Shown: positions 386 to 9,236 of the stretch, in pieces
How the letters are laid out: each line of letters starts with the position of its first letter
How positions within the stretch are numbered: position 1 is the stretch's first letter
Assembly (NCBI GenBank): GCA_049322255.1
Contig: JBMORE010000022.1
Location: 62,001 to 126,000 of the forward strand
DNA: 64,000 nt
Direction of reading: 5' to 3'
Source of the DNA: Myxococcota bacterium
GTDB lineage: Bacteria > Myxococcota > Myxococcia > Myxococcales > Myxococcaceae
Translations under genes and position numbers: made by a program
Notes under the pieces: generated by a model
What the model was told of the DNA's origin: nothing
The model's input: only the letters and a program-made list of their open reading frames with translations
The model's database searches: none

Positions 386-1273
386 CTGACGCCTGCCGCT
401 TCCATCCTCGACACCATTGGGGCCACGCCGGTGGTGCGCCTGTTGCGCGTGGTGCCCGCGGGCTCGGCCGAGGTGCTCGTCAAGCTCGAGCAGCTGGGCC
501 CCAACGGTTGCGCGCAAGACCGCGTCGCCCTGGCGCTGCTGGAAGGAGCGCCGCCGAAGGCGCCGGTGGTGGAGGCGTCGAGCGGTAACACCGGCATCGC
601 GCTGGCGATGGTGTGTGCGATGCGCGCTCATCCGCTCACCGTGGTGATGCCCGAGCACGTCAGCCTCGAGCGGCGGCAGCTGCTTTCGGCCTACGGGGCC
701 AAGGTCGAGCTGACACCCGCTCAGGAGGGCATGCGTGGCGCGATCGAGCGGGCGCGCGCGCTGGCCGCGCAGACGGGCGCATACTTCCCCAACCAGTTCG
801 AAAGTCTCGCCGCCGTCGACGTGCACCAGGCCACCACGGCTCAGGAGCTCTTGGCGACCATCCGCGCCGACGGGGGCCGCATCGATGCTTTCGTGTGCGG
901 CGCCGGCACTGGCGCCTTGCTGACGGCGGTGGGCCGCGCGCTGAAGGCGGCCTTCCCCGGGGTGCGGGTGGTGCGGGTTCTTCCCGAAGCGACCGGTGAG
1001 CCTCACCGCCTTTTGGGGATCGATGCTCACCTCGATCTGCCGTTGATCGACCGTGCGGTGGTGGACGAAACGCTGAAGGTGAGCGACCGCGAGGCGTGGC
1101 AGATGAAGCTCCGCCTGGGCAAGGAAGAGGGGCTGCTCGTCGGCATCTCCACCGGAGCCCACCTCGTCGCCGCCAGCGTGCTCGCCCAGCGGCTGGGCGT
1201 GGGCAAGCGCGTCTACACCCTCGCCTGCGACACCGGCGAGCGCTATTTCAGCCTGGCGGAGCAGTTTTCATGA
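386..1273 (+). CDS. Cysteine synthase-like protein (CysK fold), catalytic PLP Lys replaced by Gln
   Basis: ILDTIGATP, SSGNTG, NQF and DTGERY motifs present, but SVKDR reads CAQDR. Probable CTG start at 386 after GAGGA. Confidence 0.85.
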   Translation: MTPAASILDTIGATPVVRLLRVVPAGSAEVLVKLEQLGPNGCAQDRVALALLEGAPPKAPVVEASSGNTGIALAMVCAMRAHPLTVVMPEHVSLERRQLLSAYGAKVELTPAQEGMRGAIERARALAAQTGAYFPNQFESLAAVDVHQATTAQELLATIRADGGRIDAFVCGAGTGALLTAVGRALKAAFPGVRVVRVLPEATGEPHRLLGIDAHLDLPLIDRAVVDETLKVSDREAWQMKLRLGKEEGLLVGISTGAHLVAASVLAQRLGVGKRVYTLACDTGERYFSLAEQFS

Positions 1274-1956
1274 CGCGGGCGGTGGTGATTGGCGCCGGAG
1301 GCCTGGGGTGCGCGGCGGCGCTGGCGCTGGCGAAGGTGGGGGCGGAGCTGACCCTGGTCGACCCCGATCGTGTCGACGCCACCAACCTGCACCGCCAGCT
1401 GCTTCACCGCGTGTCGGACGTCGGCCGGCTCAAGGTGGAGAGCGCGGCGGATCGGCTGCGAGAGGCCTTCCCCTCGCTGGTTCTTCACACGCAGGCGGCG
1501 GCCGTGGGGGCGGCGAACGCAGAAAGGCTCTTTTCCAGCCACGACGTGGTCATCGATGGTACCGACGGGGTGGCGACGAAGTTTTTGCTCTCGGACGCGG
1601 CGGTGCTCACCGGGGTGCCGCTGGTGTACGGGGGGGTGGTGCAGTGGCGAGGGCAGGCGATGCGCATCGCTCCCGGCGGCCCGTGCCTGCGTTGTCTGTT
1701 CGAGGCGCCGCCTCCTCCTGACGCCGTGCCCACCTGCGCGCAGGCGGGGGTGTTGGGGTCGATGGCCGGGGTGGTGGGAGGCCTCCAGGCTCACCTCGCG
1801 CTGGAGGGTGAACCCGGAGGGCTGTATGTCGTAGAAGGGCACAGCCTCTGTGCACGGGTGGTGACCGTGCGCAGGGCCGAAGACTGCCGCTCGTGTGCTC
1901 CTTCGGCGCGGGCGGGCTTGAGGCTTTTGGACGAGGAGGATCGGTGCGCGCGCTGA
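1270..1956 (+). CDS. ThiF/MoeB family E1-like adenylyltransferase (active half, lacks N-terminal RYSRQ helix)
   Basis: GAGGLG, DPDRVDATNLHRQ, K, DGTD, CLRC..CRSC Zn motifs and PTC Cys; ATGA overlap with the upstream stop. Confidence 0.9.
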   Translation: MTRAVVIGAGGLGCAAALALAKVGAELTLVDPDRVDATNLHRQLLHRVSDVGRLKVESAADRLREAFPSLVLHTQAAAVGAANAERLFSSHDVVIDGTDGVATKFLLSDAAVLTGVPLVYGGVVQWRGQAMRIAPGGPCLRCLFEAPPPPDAVPTCAQAGVLGSMAGVVGGLQAHLALEGEPGGLYVVEGHSLCARVVTVRRAEDCRSCAPSARAGLRLLDEEDRCAR

Positions 1957-2231
1957 GAGACAACGCCCCTCACCCCCACCCTCTCCCAGAGGGAGAGGGG
2001 GTGTGCGCGCGGGTGGACATCACCGGTGAGGTGTGCCCGATGACCTACGTGCGCACCAAGCTCGCGCTGGAGGCGCTCCCGGCGGGCCAGGTGCTCGAGG
2101 TGCTTTTGGCTGGAGACGAGCCACTAAAGAACGTGCCGCGGAACGCGGCGGAGGAGGGGCACCAGGTGATCAGCCTCACTTCCCTTTCCGGAGGCGTGCA
2201 CCGCCTCCTCCTTCGCAAGAACAGGAGCTAA
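1944..2231 (+). CDS. TusA/SirA family sulfurtransferase
   Basis: VDITGEVCPMTYVRTKLALE motif. Start is GTG 1944 (after GAGGAGG) or GTG 2001. Confidence 0.85.
   Translation: MRALRDNAPHPHPLPEGEGVCARVDITGEVCPMTYVRTKLALEALPAGQVLEVLLAGDEPLKNVPRNAAEEGHQVISLTSLSGGVHRLLLRKNRS
1967..1999. repeat. REP-like palindrome copy 2 (opposite orientation)
   Basis: CCCTCACCCCCA-CCCTCTCCC-aga-GGGAGAGGG. Confidence 0.9.
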
Positions 2232-2236
2232 CGACG

Positions 2237-2734
2237 ATGGCCACGGTGCGAATTCCCACCCCGCTGCGCAGCTACACCCAGAACAAAGAGGAGGTCATCG
2301 CTGCGGGCACGACGGTGCGCGAGGTGCTGAACAACCTCGAGGCAAGCTACCCGGGCATCGGCGCGCGGCTGTTGGACGACAAGGGAGGGGTTCGCCGTTA
2401 CGTGAACATTTTTCATAACGACGAGGACATTCGCTTCCTCCAGGCGCTCGACACCCCGGTGACCGACTCCGACAAGCTGAGCATCATTCCCGCGATCGCC
2501 GGCGGCGCTCTCCCTCTCCCTCTGGGAGAGGGTGGGGGTGAGGGGCGACAGCTCCAAACAACCGGGAGCGGGATCGGGAGCGGGAGCGTTTGCGGGGACG
2601 GGAACGGGAACGGGAACGGATCACGTCCCACGCCAACCGGGCACGTGACCCGCAACCGTGTGCCGCATGCGTCCCCGATGCCCGCAAACGCTCCCGCTCC
2701 CGATCCCGCTCCCGGCTTCTCACTCGTCGGTTAG
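2237..2734 (+). CDS. Ubiquitin-like sulfur carrier (MoaD/CysO family) with C-terminal extension after GG
   Basis: MATVRIPTPLR...RRYVNIFHNDEDIRFL...SIIPAIAGG (GG codons 2501-2506), then 75 more codons; AGGAG RBS. Confidence 0.9.
   Translation: MATVRIPTPLRSYTQNKEEVIAAGTTVREVLNNLEASYPGIGARLLDDKGGVRRYVNIFHNDEDIRFLQALDTPVTDSDKLSIIPAIAGGALPLPLGEGGGEGRQLQTTGSGIGSGSVCGDGNGNGNGSRPTPTGHVTRNRVPHASPMPANAPAPDPAPGFSLVG
2512..2544. repeat. REP-like palindrome copy 3, inside the sulfur-carrier ORF
   Basis: CCCTCTCCC-tct-GGGAGAGGG-tggGGGTGAGGG. Confidence 0.9.
2562..2715. repeat. MITE-like element with perfect 35-bp inverted repeats
   Basis: 2562-2596 CCGGGAGCGGGATCGGGAGCGGGAGCGTTTGCGGG is the exact reverse complement of 2681-2715; internal CGGGAA tandem hexamers. 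Confidence 0.85.
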
Positions 2735-2740
2735 CTCCCG

Positions 2741-3355
2741 ATGTCCCTTTCAGAGGACCAAATCCTCCGCTACTCCCGCCAGATCCTCCTCTCCGCGGTC
2801 GGAGGCACCGGCCAGGAAAAACTCCTGGCGCAGGGAGCAACCCTCACCGGCGAGGGCTGCGCCCAGAGCGTCGCCGCCGCCTATTTGGCCGGAGGCGGCA
2901 CCCCCCTCGAAACGCGCGAACGACCGGTGAGCGGGGAGGAAGTCGGCTTTCTCCTCGGCGCCGCTGACGTCGGAAAGAGCCTGCGGAGCACAACGAGCGC
3001 AGCCCTGCTCGACGCCAACCCCGACGCCCGAGCCGAGGTGGGTGAGCGCGGCGTGGTGGGCGAGCTCCCCGCTTCCTTTTCCGGGCCCGCACCCTGGGTC
3101 GCGCTGGGGTGGAGCAAAAAAAATGGCGCAGTGGTCTACCGCTCAAAGAATGGTTGCCAGGCCTGCTTCGAAGCGACCGCCGGCGGCCTCACCAACGGCC
3201 CCTCTTCCGCGCGCTCGGTGATGCTCGGCGCCCTCGGTGCGCTGGCCTTTCAACGCCTGGTGCTCGGTCTGTCGGAAGACTTGGGAGGTGTTTGGCTCGA
3301 CGAGAGCGGGGCGCTCACCCCCATGACGCTGACGCGCTGCGAGGCCCACCGTTGA
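2741..3355 (+). CDS. Degenerate ThiF/MoeB family protein (inactive adenylation half, keeps RYSRQ)
   Basis: LSEDQILRYSRQILL..VGG.GQEKL, DVGK and CQAC present; no GxGxxG, no SNLxRQ, no catalytic Cys. Confidence 0.8.
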   Translation: MSLSEDQILRYSRQILLSAVGGTGQEKLLAQGATLTGEGCAQSVAAAYLAGGGTPLETRERPVSGEEVGFLLGAADVGKSLRSTTSAALLDANPDARAEVGERGVVGELPASFSGPAPWVALGWSKKNGAVVYRSKNGCQACFEATAGGLTNGPSSARSVMLGALGALAFQRLVLGLSEDLGGVWLDESGALTPMTLTRCEAHR

Positions 3356-4293
3356 TTCCCCGCCACGGCGAAGCCTCGCTCGACACGGTGGCGAAGCTGG
3401 TGGGGAACACCCCTTTGTTGCGCCTGCCCGTGCCAGCGGACTGCGGGGAGGTGGAAGTCTACGCCAAGCTCGAATTCTTCAACCCCGGCGGCAGCGTCAA
3501 AGACCGCCCCGCGCTGCGGATGATCCTCGACGCCCAGGAGGCCGGGCACTTCGACGGCGGCAAGGTGCTCATCGACTCCACCAGCGGGAACACGGGGGTC
3601 GCCTACGCGTGGATCGGCGCTGCCCTGGGGCTGAAGGTCGCCCTGGTGATGCCCGCGAACGTCTCTGCCGCGCGCAAGCGCATCACCTCCGCGTACGGCG
3701 CAAAGCTCATCTACTCCGACCCGATGGAGGGCTCCGACGGCGCCATCCACCACGTGCGCAAGCTCGTGGCGCAGCACCCCGATCGCTACTTCTACCCCGA
3801 CCAGTACTCCAACGAGGCCAACCCGCGGGCGCACTACCTGACCACGGGGAAAGAGATTTGGGAGCAGACACAAGGGCGGGTGACACACTTCGTCTGCGGC
3901 ATCGGCACCGGCGGCAGCGTGATGGGCACCGGCCGGCGCCTCAAAGAGCTTCAGCCGAGCGTTCGGGTCATCGCCGTCGAGCCGCTCGAGCCGATGCACG
4001 GCCTCGAAGGGCTCAAGCACATGCCGACGTCGATCGTCCCCGCCATCTACAAGGAGCACGAGCTGGACGAGAAGCTTTCGGTCTCCACCGACGAAGGTTG
4101 GGACATGTCCGAGGCGCTCGGGCGGCAGGGCCTGCTCGTCGGCCACTCCTCCGGAGCCGCGCTGGTGGGAGCGTTGACGGTGGCCCGGCGTCTGGCGGCG
4201 CACGACGAAAAGGGCGTGGTGGTGACGCTCTTCCCCGACCGCGCCGATCGCTATTTCGAGCCGGCGCGCTGGGACAGGAAGTTCTCGTGGTGA
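3352..4293 (+). CDS. cysM: Cysteine synthase B / CysO-dependent sulfhydrylase
   Basis: KLEFFNPGGSVKDR with PLP Lys, TSGNTG, DQYSN, GTGGS; TTG start overlapping the upstream stop. Confidence 0.85.
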   Translation: MIPRHGEASLDTVAKLVGNTPLLRLPVPADCGEVEVYAKLEFFNPGGSVKDRPALRMILDAQEAGHFDGGKVLIDSTSGNTGVAYAWIGAALGLKVALVMPANVSAARKRITSAYGAKLIYSDPMEGSDGAIHHVRKLVAQHPDRYFYPDQYSNEANPRAHYLTTGKEIWEQTQGRVTHFVCGIGTGGSVMGTGRRLKELQPSVRVIAVEPLEPMHGLEGLKHMPTSIVPAIYKEHELDEKLSVSTDEGWDMSEALGRQGLLVGHSSGAALVGALTVARRLAAHDEKGVVVTLFPDRADRYFEPARWDRKFSW

Positions 4294-4742
4294 AGCTGCC
4301 CCAAGACTTGAGCGAGGTGCTCGCCCACCTGCGCTCGACCTACCCCGACGAAGGGTGTGGGCTCATCTTGCGAAAGGAAGAGGAAACCTTCCGCGTACGG
4401 CCGATGAGCAACGCCTACGATCGCTACCACGCCAAAGACCCCGACCGCTTTCCCCGCACCGCCCGCACGGCGTACCTCTTCGACCCCAAAGAGCAGCTCC
4501 ACGCCTATGCAGAGGCCGAGGCCCGCGGCGAAACCATCTGCTGCATCTACCACTCGCACTGCGACGCCGGCGCCTACTTCTCCGCCGAAGACAAGGTGAT
4601 GGCGGCTCCCGACGGAGAGCCGATTCTCCCCGGGGTGGGCTACCTCGTGGTCGCCATCGATCAGGGCAGGCCGACGGCGGCCAAGCTTTTCTGGTGGGAA
4701 GACGGAAATTTCCAGGAAGCCTCAGTTCCGTTGCCGTTGTAG
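4290..4742 (+). CDS. JAMM/MPN (Mov34) metalloprotease, Mec+-like
   Basis: YPDEGCG ... YHSHCDAGAYFSAED (E...HxH...S..D); GTGA overlap. Confidence 0.9.
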   Translation: MKLPQDLSEVLAHLRSTYPDEGCGLILRKEEETFRVRPMSNAYDRYHAKDPDRFPRTARTAYLFDPKEQLHAYAEAEARGETICCIYHSHCDAGAYFSAEDKVMAAPDGEPILPGVGYLVVAIDQGRPTAAKLFWWEDGNFQEASVPLPL

Positions 4743-4896: not shown

Positions 4897-5610
4897 ATGC
4901 CCAATAACATTGGATTTACCGTGTGGCTGACCGGAATGTTGGGAACTGGGAAGACCACCTTGGCCAACTATCTGGCGGCTCGGCTTCGCCAAGTGGGCCG
5001 AAACGTCGAGGTTCTCGACGAAGAAGAGGTGGGGGACGCCCTGTGGGGGGAGGAGATCGGTGAGACCAAGGACGAGCGGAACATGACCGTTCGCCGGCTG
5101 GGTTACGTCTCCAATCTGCTCACCCGCAACAACTCTGCGGTGCTGGTGGCCTCGGTGAGCCCGTACAAGGCCTCGCGCGAGGAGAACCGCCGCCTCATCG
5201 GGCGCTTCATCGAGGTGTACGTCGATTGCCCGACCGAGAAGCTCATTTCGCGGGACACCACCGGGCGGTACAAGAAGGCCCTCTCGGGGGAAATCCCCAA
5301 CTTCATCGGCATCACCGAGCCGTACGAGCCGCCGCACGCGCCTGAAGTCACCATCCACTCCGACGTCGAGCCGGTGGAGGAGGGGGCGCGCAAAATCTTC
5401 CAGTCCCTGCTCGACCTGTCCTACTTGACCGCCGAGGAGCTGAAGACCATCACCGGCAAGCGGATGAAGGCCAACCCGCTGGCGAAGAAGGCGCGCCGGT
5501 CGCTCAAGGGGCCTGCCAAGGGCGCACGGGCCGCCCGCCGTCCAGCGTCTCGCGCGGCGCGGGTGGCAAAGGCCTCCAAGAGGGCAGCGGGCAAGCGCAA
5601 GGGCCGCTAA
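4897..5610 (+). CDS. cysC: Adenylyl-sulfate kinase with basic K/R/A-rich C-terminal tail
   Basis: TVWLTG..GTGKTT, SPY..R, RD..GRYKKAL.GEIPNFIGI..PYE.P. Confidence 0.85.
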   Translation: MPNNIGFTVWLTGMLGTGKTTLANYLAARLRQVGRNVEVLDEEEVGDALWGEEIGETKDERNMTVRRLGYVSNLLTRNNSAVLVASVSPYKASREENRRLIGRFIEVYVDCPTEKLISRDTTGRYKKALSGEIPNFIGITEPYEPPHAPEVTIHSDVEPVEEGARKIFQSLLDLSYLTAEELKTITGKRMKANPLAKKARRSLKGPAKGARAARRPASRAARVAKASKRAAGKRKGR

Positions 5611-5647: not shown

Positions 5648-6517
5648 GTGAGCCTGACCGAAACCCAGATCAGCGCACGGTGCGCCGCCTCCCAGCACAA
5701 GCTCGACGCCGTGCGCGCGGCGATGCGGGCGCACGGCTCGGCGCTGGTCGCCTTCTCCGGTGGCGTCGATTCGGCCTTCGTGCTCAAGATCGCGCGCGAC
5801 GAGCTGGGGGCCCAGGCAGTGGCGCTCACCGCCGTATCGCCTTCGGTGGCTCCCGAGGAAGTGCGCGAGGCGAAACAGCTCGCCGACAAGCTCGGCGTGC
5901 GCCACGTGCTGGTCGACTCCCACGAGCTGAAAAACCCCAGCTACGCCGCCAACCCCCAAAACCGCTGTTACTTCTGCAAGAGCGAGCTGTACGACATCGC
6001 CGAGGGCAAGCGACAGGAGCTGGGTCTGGCGGTGGTGCTCGATGGTTACAACGCCGATGACGAAAAAGATCATCGGCCCGGGCATCAGGCGGCACAGGAG
6101 CACCGGGTGCGTTCGCCTTTGGCCGAGAACGGGCTGACCAAGGAAGAAATTCGCGCCTGGTCCCACCGGATGGCGCTCCCCACCTGGGACAAGCCGCAGC
6201 TGGCGTGTCTTGCCTCGCGCATTCCGTACGGCACCGCGGTGACCGCCGAGCGCCTCGTTCAGATCGGCAGTGCCGAGTCAGACTTGAAGGCGCTGGGCCT
6301 GCGCGTCTTCCGCGTGCGTTACCACGGAGACCTCGCGCGCCTGGAAGTCGGCGCCGAAGAGCAGCGACGCTTCGATGACCCCAGCTTCCGCCAGGCGGTC
6401 AACGACGCGCTGCGCCGCCGGGGGTTTTCCTTCGTCGCCCTGGACTTGGAACCTTTTCGCTCGGGGAGAATGAACGAAGCGGTGGGCCCGCTGCTCAAGC
6501 CCTTTGCTTCCGGGTAG
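5648..6517 (+). CDS. larE: LarE-family PP-loop ATP-dependent sulfur transferase
   Basis: AFSGGVDS PP-loop, NRCYFCK, HRPG, CLASRIPYG, FRSGRMN. Confidence 0.85.
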   Translation: MSLTETQISARCAASQHKLDAVRAAMRAHGSALVAFSGGVDSAFVLKIARDELGAQAVALTAVSPSVAPEEVREAKQLADKLGVRHVLVDSHELKNPSYAANPQNRCYFCKSELYDIAEGKRQELGLAVVLDGYNADDEKDHRPGHQAAQEHRVRSPLAENGLTKEEIRAWSHRMALPTWDKPQLACLASRIPYGTAVTAERLVQIGSAESDLKALGLRVFRVRYHGDLARLEVGAEEQRRFDDPSFRQAVNDALRRRGFSFVALDLEPFRSGRMNEAVGPLLKPFASG

Positions 6518-6569
6518 CCAGCTTCCCTACAATCGCGCCGTAGGGTCGGTCGATCGGAGGCAACCTCGC

Positions 6570-9236
6570 ATGGGGGTCAGGAAATCAGCGCTGGGCTTGG
6601 TCGTGCTGGCGTTCGCGATCATCGTGGGGTGCTCGAGCACAGGGGGCGGGTGCGCGGGGCTGCAGCCGTTGCCGAACAACGCGCGCTATCAAGGGCCGAA
6701 GACCGACAACGTGGTCAACTTCCGGCTCTCTCCCGGAGGTATCAACTACCTCAACTCGAACTGGCGAACGCTGATCGACATGTTCGCGCCGGGGCAAGTC
6801 ATTCACTTCCCGGTTCCCTGCACCCGTTTCGACGTGGGTATCAGTGGGGTGCTTCGCTGGGTGTTGATCGCGAATCAGGGGGGCGCCAACTGCACCTCAG
6901 AATCCTGCGGCCGCATGGACGGCATTTGCGACGCCCGCGACGTACCGGCGGACGTGACCATCACCGTGACCGGGTTCCAACTGGTCCCCAGCCCGCCCGA
7001 CAAAATCAACGGCACGCTTCGCGTCTCGGTCAACACGGGGAAGGTTTACGTCGACACGGAAGATCGAACGCAACAGAAGTGCCTGATCTACCCGTCGTGC
7101 TGGTCGTTCCTCGGCAGCACCTGTCCGGTCAAGTGCAGCGTGCTGTTCAACAGCGCGCGCGCGTCACCTTCCGACAACCGCATGGTGGCGACGGTGAAGT
7201 TCACCATCGACACGCGCTGGGACAAGCTCCTGGCTTTCTCGGTGGAAAATGTCGATGGCGCGAAGATCTGCGGAGCCAGCGGCGCTCCCCCGAGCGGCGC
7301 CGACAACTGTCTGGAGCCGAGCGACCTGTCGCTCAATGGCGAGAACTCCTGTGGCGGCTACTGCGACGCGGTCGACTGGGACCCGGTCAAGACCTTCCTT
7401 CTGCAGATGATCTCCCCCACGCTCGAACAAAAGGTCAGAGAGACCGTCGCCGGCCAGTCTTGCGAGAAGTGCGGCACCGGGCTCAAGGCGTGTCCGACGG
7501 CCGGCACAGCGACGTCCACCTGCCAAAACGGTGTCTGCATGGATGGCCAACAGTGCGTGCCCCGCTTCCTCGGCGTGGAGGGGCGCGTCACCCTTTCCGA
7601 TTTCATGGGGAGCTTCGGTGTCCCTCCCACCGCCCAGCTCGACATGTCCATCGCCGCCGGCAGCTCGGTGGCTGTCGACCAGGGCATCAGCATCGGCACC
7701 CGTGGCGGCATCACCTCGCTCACCCCTGCTCCCTGCGTGGCCCCACTTCCCGCTCCGGCCATCAACCCGGTGCCTCCGCCCGACTTCGACGCCGACGCCG
7801 CCCGGGCGCCGCTCGACGCTTCGGGCTACCACGTGGGCTTGGGGCTTTCGCAGTCCTTTCTCAACCTGGCGATGCACCACGCGCAGCAGTCCGGAGCGCT
7901 CTGCATCAACGTGAACAGCTCCACCGTGGGCGTGCTCAACTCCGGCCTGTTCAAGACCTTCCTCCCCTCGCTGGGCAAGCTGGTCACCCGCGACGGCAAG
8001 GACGCGCCGATGATGATCGTCTTGCGCCCGGCGCAGGTGCCGACCATCACCGTGGGCGAAGGCACCTACGATCCGGCCACCAAGCGGCCGGTGAAGCCGT
8101 TGCTCCTCATCAAGCTTCCCGACATCAGCGTCGACTTTTACGCGATGCTCGATGATCGTTACGCCCGCCTCTTCACCGTCACCGCCGACATCTCTTTGCC
8201 GCTGTCGCTCATCTTCAACGGGTGCTCCAGCGTGCAGCCGGCGCTGGGCGACTTGAAGCAGCTCATCACCAACGTGCGCACCGCCAACAGCGAAATGCTC
8301 GCCGAAGATCCGAAGGTCCTCGCCGACCTCATCCCCGCGGTGATTGGTCTGGCCGAGCCCGCGGTGGCCGGGGCGCTGCAACCGTTCACCATGCCCGACC
8401 TGGGCACCTTCAAGCTCAAGGTCAACGCCACCAAGGGCGTGGGCAACATCGCCGGCACCGAGACCTACAATCACTTGGGCATCTACGCGACGCTCCTCCC
8501 CGCGGGAGCCGCGTGCGCGGTGAGCGGCCCCACCACCCAGGTCGCCCTCAAGCGCTCGATCATCCCCGCGGCCGCGGACATGCGCCTGCGGGGCCAGCCG
8601 TTGCCGTGGCCAGTGGCGGTGCTCGACGTGCGCGCCCTGGGGGTCGAAGGCACTGCCGAGTTCGCCTACCGGGTGGACCAAGGATTGTGGAGCACCTTCC
8701 TCCTCGCCAATGCGCAGCACGAGCTCGAGGTTTCGCACCCTGCGTTTCTCCTCCAGGGCCAACACGTCATCGAGGTGCGTTCGCGCCTGGCCGACGACCC
8801 GCACGGCATCTCTGCTCCGGTGGCGATCGGCTTTCAGGTCGACTGGGAGCCGCCTGAGGTTTCACTCCACGCCGATCGCGACAACAACCGCCTGCTGGTC
8901 GAGGCGCGCGATGTCATCTCGCCGCCCGAGAAGCTGACCTTTGCCTATGCGGTGGGGGAGGGCGCCTTCTCCGACTTCGGCCCCACTCGCTTGATTGACT
9001 TGGCAGCGATCGAGGCCGCGGGAGGGCTCGAGGTCCGTGTGCGCGACGAGCTGGGCAACGTCGGCGAAGCGGCCTTCCGGGTACCCGGCGCGGCATTGCA
9101 CCCGGAGAGCGAGCCAGCGGTGGCGGCCGATTCGATGCCAAACGCAGGCTGCACGTCGACCGGCGGGCTCATCGGCTTTGCCGCCCTGGGGTTGTTGGGG
9201 CTCTTGTGTCGTCGCCGCGGGCCGCGGTCACCGTAA
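6570..9236 (+). CDS. Large Cys-rich surface protein with lipobox and MYXO-CTERM sorting signal
   Basis: N-terminal hydrophobic stretch plus IVG-C; C-terminal AGCTSTGG-hydrophobic-RRR. Confidence 0.75.
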   Translation: MGVRKSALGLVVLAFAIIVGCSSTGGGCAGLQPLPNNARYQGPKTDNVVNFRLSPGGINYLNSNWRTLIDMFAPGQVIHFPVPCTRFDVGISGVLRWVLIANQGGANCTSESCGRMDGICDARDVPADVTITVTGFQLVPSPPDKINGTLRVSVNTGKVYVDTEDRTQQKCLIYPSCWSFLGSTCPVKCSVLFNSARASPSDNRMVATVKFTIDTRWDKLLAFSVENVDGAKICGASGAPPSGADNCLEPSDLSLNGENSCGGYCDAVDWDPVKTFLLQMISPTLEQKVRETVAGQSCEKCGTGLKACPTAGTATSTCQNGVCMDGQQCVPRFLGVEGRVTLSDFMGSFGVPPTAQLDMSIAAGSSVAVDQGISIGTRGGITSLTPAPCVAPLPAPAINPVPPPDFDADAARAPLDASGYHVGLGLSQSFLNLAMHHAQQSGALCINVNSSTVGVLNSGLFKTFLPSLGKLVTRDGKDAPMMIVLRPAQVPTITVGEGTYDPATKRPVKPLLLIKLPDISVDFYAMLDDRYARLFTVTADISLPLSLIFNGCSSVQPALGDLKQLITNVRTANSEMLAEDPKVLADLIPAVIGLAEPAVAGALQPFTMPDLGTFKLKVNATKGVGNIAGTETYNHLGIYATLLPAGAACAVSGPTTQVALKRSIIPAAADMRLRGQPLPWPVAVLDVRALGVEGTAEFAYRVDQGLWSTFLLANAQHELEVSHPAFLLQGQHVIEVRSRLADDPHGISAPVAIGFQVDWEPPEVSLHADRDNNRLLVEARDVISPPEKLTFAYAVGEGAFSDFGPTRLIDLAAIEAAGGLEVRVRDELGNVGEAAFRVPGAALHPESEPAVAADSMPNAGCTSTGGLIGFAALGLLGLLCRRRGPRSP

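Follow-up and report, generated by a model that had tools for sequence, protein, structure and literature searches.

A probable two-gene, heterodimeric variant of the MoeB/ThiF sulfur-carrier adenylyltransferases in Myxococcota

The DNA analyzed here, a window of 64,000 nucleotides from contig JBMORE010000022.1 of a Myxococcota bacterium, opens with an operon-like run of genes on one strand: cysK-like, gene A, tusA, a gene for a ubiquitin-like protein (Ubl), gene B, cysM-like, mec (a JAB protease), cysC-like, and larE. Genes A and B both belong to the ThiF/MoeB family of ubiquitin-activating (E1) type enzymes. Gene A (1270–1956, + strand, 228 aa) encodes an active adenylation subunit that lacks the N-terminal helix with the arginine finger. 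Gene B (2741–3355, + strand, 204 aa) encodes a catalytically dead paralogue in which this RYSRQ helix is preserved, along with the helix of the dimer interface and the ligands for zinc. Our best reading, to which we assign a probability of roughly 0.78, is that A and B make up a heterodimeric sulfur-carrier adenylyltransferase with a single active site, which works with TusA and is convergent on SAE1/SAE2, and that both subunits descend from a duplicated operon E1 that split the jobs of one enzyme. Sequence and modeling make the A:B heterodimer as such probable. It is well supported by complementary losses in the two genes, by their joint presence and joint loss, by a full-length single E1 in a sister lineage, and by the modeled interface. 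The pair is probably used for sulfur metabolism, and the split was apparently reached independently of eukaryotes.

By its residues, A is a ThiF/MoeB adenylyltransferase that would adenylate a carrier protein ending in GG. It carries G8/G10/G11/G13, D31, N39, R42, K55, D96, D99, C139/C142, C156, and C206/C209, each of which is kept in 120 of 120 homologues. Residues R42, K55, D99, and C156 correspond to R73, K86, D130, and C187 of E. coli MoeB (offset of +31 in the match to 1jw9; MoeB numbering as in PMC13139853 and PMC12355090). The N-terminal RYxRQ motif is absent from the same 120 homologues, and all 135 distinct active E1s encoded at B-containing loci lack it as well. The ATG start codon of A overlaps the stop codon of the upstream cysK-like gene (ATGA), the Rossmann strand begins three residues in, and the in-frame stretch upstream of the start is devoid of RYxRQ. 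A longer reading frame that starts at GTG 1096 was ruled out, as it overlaps cysK and also lacks RYxRQ. The Pfam ThiF match of A covers profile positions 22–199 only. The model of A consists of the adenylation domain, and these 228 residues contain neither an inserted CYS domain nor a UFD. Matches from PADLOC cover the adenylation domain of A only and include nothing for B, the Ubl, the JAB protein, or TusA; an E1 linked to an E2, as in Bil/CBASS-type defense, was not found.

The protein encoded by B begins with LSEDQILRYSRQILL, and its R13 aligns with R14 of MoeB. GxGGxG/P-loop, NLxRQ, and DxTD motifs are all missing from B. Among 137 distinct Bs, none contains NLxRQ, and the rare regular-expression matches to GxGG or DxTD fall outside the site. 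Nevertheless, B is predicted to fold as a complete ThiF/MoeB domain (predicted local distance difference test, pLDDT, 95.9). The best structural matches are ThiF and MoeB (Foldseek E 1.9e-10 for ThiF; Z 17.3, root-mean-square deviation 3.1, 198 aligned residues), followed by Z scores of 16.1 for SAE1 and 15.2–15.7 for NAE1. Four likely zinc ligands are retained (C139, C142, C200, and H/C203). C200 is present in all 118 close B sequences, and position 203 is a cysteine in 105 and a histidine in 11 of them. R10 and R13 are invariant in this set, from which two fused proteins were dropped because of their length. In a broader set of 150 best representatives (50% clustering), 146 keep R13 and the other four are N-terminally truncated gene calls; the profile used for this search was dominated by the same N-terminus and is biased toward such sequences. 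An earlier note on this DNA had described the full motif set of A without the N-terminal helix, and B as the RYSRQ helix and a CxxC without ATP-binding or catalytic motifs. Both descriptions hold, the former throughout the family, and the second zinc half-site C200xxH203 is an addition to the latter. The same counts agree with the note's expectation that B orthologues would conserve the RYSRQ arginine.

Both genes are under purifying selection, with median pairwise ratios of nonsynonymous to synonymous substitution (dN/dS) of 0.235 for B (307 pairs) and 0.262 for A (731 pairs), estimated by a simple counting method from pairs that are not independent. In families f6, f8, f9, and f14 and in one genus of f1, B has shrunk to 87–128 aa and retains little beyond the dimer helix at its C-terminus and the region of the N-terminal helix. 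A profile–profile comparison between B and A is weak (probability 9.7%, E 0.003), so that the homology of B rests on its N-terminal Pfam/NCBIfam match and on structure. The possibility that B is a frameshifted half of A was ruled out, as each protein spans the whole fold. No match to B was found in plasmids. The databases label B as a "ThiF family adenylyltransferase". The ESM Atlas lists putative B-like clusters with Candidatus Binatota as the commonest phylum.

The two genes come and go together. We searched 139 of 140 other genomes from the same family with a B profile and judged the matches from their E-values and from a visual comparison of coordinates. A and B are both present in 125 of these genomes and both absent from 12; two more (G201 and G248) have contig ends within the operon, and no genome clearly contains one gene alone. 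The survey of co-occurrence and dN/dS proposed in the earlier note came out in favor of the pair. The loss is visible at the locus in eight genomes from three genera, which retain mec-cysC-larE (seven with the Ubl) without A, tusA, and B; other members of these three genera keep the A/B pair. In five of these eight genomes that were tested, the B profile matches only full-length E1s. The same order contains further A/B pairs in f2, f3, f5, f6, f7, f8, and f9, and two more families of the phylum, f14 and f23, have them too. No E1 at all was seen at 18 of 20 larE loci in one survey, nor at two loci from f4. Six loci that had been labeled automatically as containing a full-length E1 next to B proved to be false labels caused by the N-terminal profile; the motif occurs in none of them. 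Several relatives (L155, L156, L317, L318, L320, and L321) encode a distinct family of short ThiF-like proteins, about 190 aa long, that lack the N-terminal helix and CxxC and end in a TCEGGEHLP motif.

A model of A and B with ATP reached an interface score (ipSAE) of 0.96, compared to 0.01 for the best of three controls. Of 157 solved complexes, 116 attained the pass mark, as did 2 of 215 mismatched pairs; this calibration is roughly valid here given our own alignments and the ligand. Model runs share at least 98% of contacts, with a partner pLDDT of at least 93. The interface comprises B 9–14 and 155–172 and A 37–49 and 156–181, as expected for a MoeB-like dimer. In B, conservation is higher in the 56 columns of the interface (0.53) than in the 148 columns outside it (0.37; burial not controlled). 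Since similar complexes have already been solved, the passing score indicates likeness rather than binding. The heterodimer proposed in the earlier note has gained comparative evidence and a high model score, with binding itself as a prediction.

The probable starting point of this arrangement is found in family f10 of the same class. In three genomes of this family (L170, L171, and the frameshifted L296), the same operon has its cysK intact and encodes a single full-length, motif-bearing E1, and no B. A single full-length E1 is likewise encoded at four similar loci from outside the order, of which three carry the name Saganbacteria. The single full-length E1 of f10 is likely the ancestral state. 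A tree built from 62 active domains places 46 A-types on one side of a branch with 100/92 support, and f10 is nearest across this branch. The A protein of f23 branches among the full-length enzymes. This family contains an adjacent pair of an N-truncated active E1 and an inactive B (L295:4866–6283, G081), which may represent a second, independent origin. As bootstrapping is unsettled, the A branches are long, B is not represented, and an unrelated long-branched ThiF (L275) falls within the A side, the tree is suggestive only, also as to the number of origins. An origin inside Myxococcota suggests convergence with SAE1/SAE2 and NAE1/UBA3.

Several observations weigh against our interpretation. 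The A:B score may stem from the predictor's memory of MoeB and ThiF homodimers. The genomes are related by descent, and the co-occurrence counts are therefore not independent. Joint loss of neighboring genes may reflect a single deletion, yet seven of the eight genomes still contain the Ubl gene, which lies between tusA and B. One of 137 distinct locus-derived Bs (L031) has lost R13, and B of L131 and A of L244 are frameshifted in their assemblies. Among 111 wider loci, some of which represent the same genome twice via broken contigs, we found tusA in 98, larE in 100, the cysC-like gene in 99, mec in 97, a Ubl in 72, and a cysteine synthase in 24. The operon Ubl is thus missing from 39 loci and cannot be the sole substrate, and two loci (L176 and L291) show neither tusA nor Ubl. 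Finally, MoeB and ThiF reportedly do not need their arginine fingers, mutation R59A in yeast Tcd1 lowers activity by 26%, and TcdA functions without an arginine finger (PMC13139853). The same source states that Tcd1 is still required for the stability of Tcd2.

If the finger is dispensable, B may be needed mainly as a scaffold, and we consider that it may chiefly play this role. Alternatively, A could be active alone as a finger-less, TcdA-like homodimer, with B as an occasional regulator such as an inhibitor, a chaperone, or an adapter for TusA, JAMM, or LarE. Besides the reported dispensability of the finger in MoeB and ThiF and its absence from TcdA (PMC13139853), the B protein without R13 and the fusion of B to JAMM protease or Ubl in some lineages would fit this idea. 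We judge it unlikely, because it leaves unexplained why the helix is lost from A in every B-containing locus, why it is kept by all operon E1s without B, and why A without B was not detected in any genome. The earlier claim that B supplies a needed arginine stands in part. That R13 is almost invariant in B sequences that are eroded elsewhere suggests that this residue matters in vivo, and B 9–14 lies in the modeled interface; the need for the finger is what the published findings and L031 call into question.

The heterodimeric reading is strengthened by genomes that seem to lack MoeZ. All nine such genomes tested contain A, B where detected, TcdA-like proteins, and divergent ThiF members, and no full-length MoeB or MoeZ. 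Two of them, G055 and G005, are single-contig genomes with both A and B. ThiG is encoded in five of five and MoaE in four of five of the tested genomes from this group. In G055, the only detected Ubl is a ThiS next to thiG, and the only E1s are A and B. Conversely, 11 of 12 genomes without A and B contain a MoeZ-level match. These distributions suggest that A+B and MoeZ are interchangeable across genomes, an argument for regarding the pair as a functional E1. As the sole MoeB-type E1 of MoeZ-less genomes, the pair may also act on ThiS or MoaD. The proposal in the earlier note that the pair activates the Ubl encoded between its genes is, for this reason and because of the 39 loci without it, not general; moreover, the two genes enclose tusA as well as the Ubl gene, instead of a Ubl gene alone. 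Could B nevertheless be a decaying relic or independent of A, with A borrowing the helix from a full-length MoeZ encoded elsewhere? The source genome does encode a full MoeZ (contig C82), B sequences are strongly eroded and differ in length, and the adjacent cysK is also decaying in several genomes. Retention of B in nine families with a dN/dS of about 0.24, and persistence of A and B where no MoeZ was found, including G055 and G005, make this scenario hardly credible.

The Ubl gene of the window (2237–2734, + strand) encodes a CysO/MoaD/SAMP1-like sulfur carrier (ThiS E 1e-15; above the cut-off of the SAMP1 model). GG forms the C-terminus in 61 of 93 distinct Ubls and is followed by one extra residue in 21. 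In the source genome, GG is at aa 89–90 (ending at 2506) and is followed by a read-through tail of 75 aa made by a repetitive extragenic palindromic (REP)-like repeat at the expected stop codon (2505–2547, + strand). This repeat is inverted relative to another copy between A and tusA (1964–2006, − strand); the repeat has about 200 copies in the genome. With this tail, the Ubl either needs trimming or is impaired. The tail also contains a second inverted repeat (2562–2596/2681–2715).

Several fusions connect the components of the operon. Several lineages encode an A protein with TusA attached at its C-terminus, a layout that resembles the adenylation-plus-rhodanese architecture of MoeZ and Uba4 (PMC11662940). 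B is fused to JAB in five loci. Five loci from two families (L118:7731–8600, L215, L219, L220, and L228, all with mec) encode in-frame Ubl-GG-B polyproteins without an ATG, GTG, or TTG start ahead of the B motif. Since Ubl and B are one polypeptide in these cases, JAMM cleavage would be needed. MoaD-MoaE fusions were observed in four genomes without an operon Ubl (L052, L055, L057, and L059); mec is kept in three of the four, which makes these fusions possible JAMM substrates.

A protease next to a Ubl also raises the question as to whether A:B activates the Ubl for JAMM-reversed protein conjugation as in SAMP or TtuB systems, instead of or besides sulfur transfer. The Ubl scores above the SAMP1 cut-off, the best NCBIfam match of the JAB protein is a desampylase (below its cut-off), C156 of A is invariant, and mec is retained in many loci without cysM or Ubl. 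We regard conjugation as improbable in view of the remaining operon genes, which all belong to sulfur metabolism, of the apparent interchangeability of MoeZ and A+B, and of the operon, which contains no E2 gene. A genome search for PF00179 (E2) also returned nothing, but its controls were silent too, making it uninformative, and it did not extend to prokaryotic E2 families.

With sulfur transfer as the preferred function, the following mechanism can be proposed. The JAMM protease would first trim the carrier after GG. A would then bind Mg-ATP and the carrier protein and adenylate the C-terminal GG, for which the residues are in place. B would serve as the dimer partner, with its central helix packed on the central helix of A. 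In the model, the RYSRQ helix of B covers A 37–49 and would bring R13 to the ATP site; how much R13 contributes to catalysis is uncertain. A persulfide on TusA would replace the rhodanese domain of MoeZ and Uba4 to convert the adenylate to the carrier thiocarboxylate. From there, the sulfur could move to CysM where present, to the ThiG and MoaE pathways in MoeZ-less lineages, and possibly to LarE.

Comparison with known systems defines what is distinct about A and B. E. coli MoeB and ThiF (1jw9, 1zud) share the fold, the catalytic residues of A, the zinc site, and the dimer geometry, and they are the closest structural relatives of B. Those enzymes are encoded by one gene and have two equal active sites, in contrast to the pair described here, whose two genes show complementary losses and for which a single site is predicted. 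Like SAE1–SAE2 and NAE1–UBA3, the pair consists of separate active and inactive adenylation subunits with the N-terminal arginine on the inactive one, although binding is modeled in our case. Unlike these enzymes, the pair contains no FCCH, CYS/SCCH, or UFD domain, its operon has no E2 gene, and its neighbors are genes of sulfur metabolism. Structure comparison places B no closer to SAE1 or NAE1 than to ThiF. The "eukaryote-style" E1 of the earlier note is therefore apt for the pairing of active and inactive subunits and not for the domains, the conjugation partner, or the structural affinity of B. In other words, A/B shares the subunit logic of SAE1/SAE2 without belonging to that family.

Among bacterial E1s, BilD from the Bil anti-phage system is described as a fused inactive/active enzyme, the others known being homodimers (PMC10557695). 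Its inactive adenylation domain provides Arg9 to the active one, as proposed for B. BilD differs in being a single polypeptide with a CYS domain, an E2 partner, and a role in Ubl conjugation; A and B come from two genes, and TusA stands in place of the E2. Tcd1–Tcd2 from Saccharomyces cerevisiae is another heterodimer of ThiF-family paralogues with one active site, in which the inactive partner provides stability and a non-essential arginine finger (PMC13139853). In contrast to A and B, this eukaryotic tRNA dehydratase involves no Ubl and shows less reciprocal losses. Operons with ThiS/MoaD, JAB, E1, SirA, and cysteine synthase or APS kinase were compiled in PMC1779556 (Table 1, rows 4c–4e), including rhodanese-less E1s together with SirA. 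These operons contain one E1 each, and the accessible part of that paper mentions neither an inactive second E1 nor LarE. The accessible sections of PMC12355090, PMC11354881, and PMC13325395 likewise contain no bacterial two-gene case. Our literature search, which covered articles without their supplements, returned no published bacterial two-gene pair of active and inactive ThiF proteins; an earlier bioinformatic mention is possible. We conclude that A/B is a real and widespread variant of the MoeB/ThiF enzymes that is apparently undescribed.

The path from symmetric MoeB/ThiF dimers to eukaryotic E1s with one active site is usually inferred from its end points. Here, within a single phylum, the full-length state of f10 can be compared with B proteins that are mildly eroded and with others that measure about 90–130 aa. 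This series makes the role of an inactive E1 subunit as arginine finger or scaffold testable, corrects the database annotation of B, and indicates a possible sulfur donor route for LarE. Tentatively, and with more doubt than confidence, one could go further and propose that in Myxococcota a MoeB-like homodimer was duplicated and, through reciprocal losses, became a natural heterodimeric E1 encoded by two genes, perhaps on two occasions, that this enzyme is the sole E1 for the thiamine and molybdopterin carriers in some lineages, and that the TusA/Ubl-thiocarboxylate relay feeds its conserved partner LarE. If true, this would provide a new way for sulfur to reach the nickel-pincer cofactor and a minimal living model for the evolution of SAE1/SAE2-type asymmetry.

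The remaining genes of the operon lie on the + strand around A and B. TusA/SirA (2001–2231; start GTG at 2001 or 2013; Pfam TusA E 4e-19) is a persulfide carrier with a CPMTY motif. The cysteine synthase (3352–4293) is CysM-like, with an intact lysine for binding of pyridoxal phosphate (PLP) and a TIGR01138 match (E 5e-103) below the cut-off of this model. The Mec-like JAB/JAMM protease (4290–4742; Prok-JAB E 6e-21) contains an HSH motif. With these proteins, a GG-ended Ubl, a JAMM protease, an E1, a persulfide carrier, and a cysteine synthase, the components of a Ubl-thiocarboxylate relay, are encoded in the window. The mec-cysO-cysM genes of Mycobacterium are a related gene set. Named relatives come from Myxococcaceae and other Myxococcota, and A and B are both encoded in Myxococcus xanthus, a genetically tractable species. 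A search for a sigma-70-like promoter found none.

Upstream of A, the CysK-like PLP enzyme (386–1273; start codon uncertain; PALP E 1e-54, below the cysK cut-off) has a glutamine in place of the PLP-binding lysine. This lysine is also lost in L032, L045, L125, L176, and L185, and is kept at further A/B loci as well as in each of the seven operons whose E1 is full-length. The lysine-less gene represents either ongoing decay or a regulatory pseudo-enzyme. A second consistent pair of enzyme and pseudo-enzyme, formed by CysK and CysM, is unsupported, as only some upstream cysK copies have lost the lysine.

The protein similar to adenosine 5′-phosphosulfate (APS) kinase (CysC-like, 4897–5610) contains LDEEEV at the position of the usual APS kinase motif LDGD. 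It carries a long, basic C-terminal tail rich in Lys, Arg, and Ala, and is highly conserved beside larE; two further cysC copies are found in the genome. LarE (5648–6517; TIGR00268, 303.9 bits vs a cut-off of 150), a PP-loop sulfur insertase with a CxxC...C arrangement (C107, C110, and C187), is the most constant neighbor in the operon. The larB and larC genes are located elsewhere in the genome (G000 C194:31857–33628), and larC was found in five of five genomes tested. Three-cysteine LarEs are described as using a [4Fe-4S] cluster fed by IscS, and a parallel to the TtuA/TtuB thiocarboxylate has been noted (PMC9283937). By analogy, the Ubl might donate sulfur to LarE, which is an extrapolation. 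LarE is followed by a gene (6504–9236) for a Cys-rich protein of 910 aa, which is probably secreted and has no Pfam or NCBIfam match.

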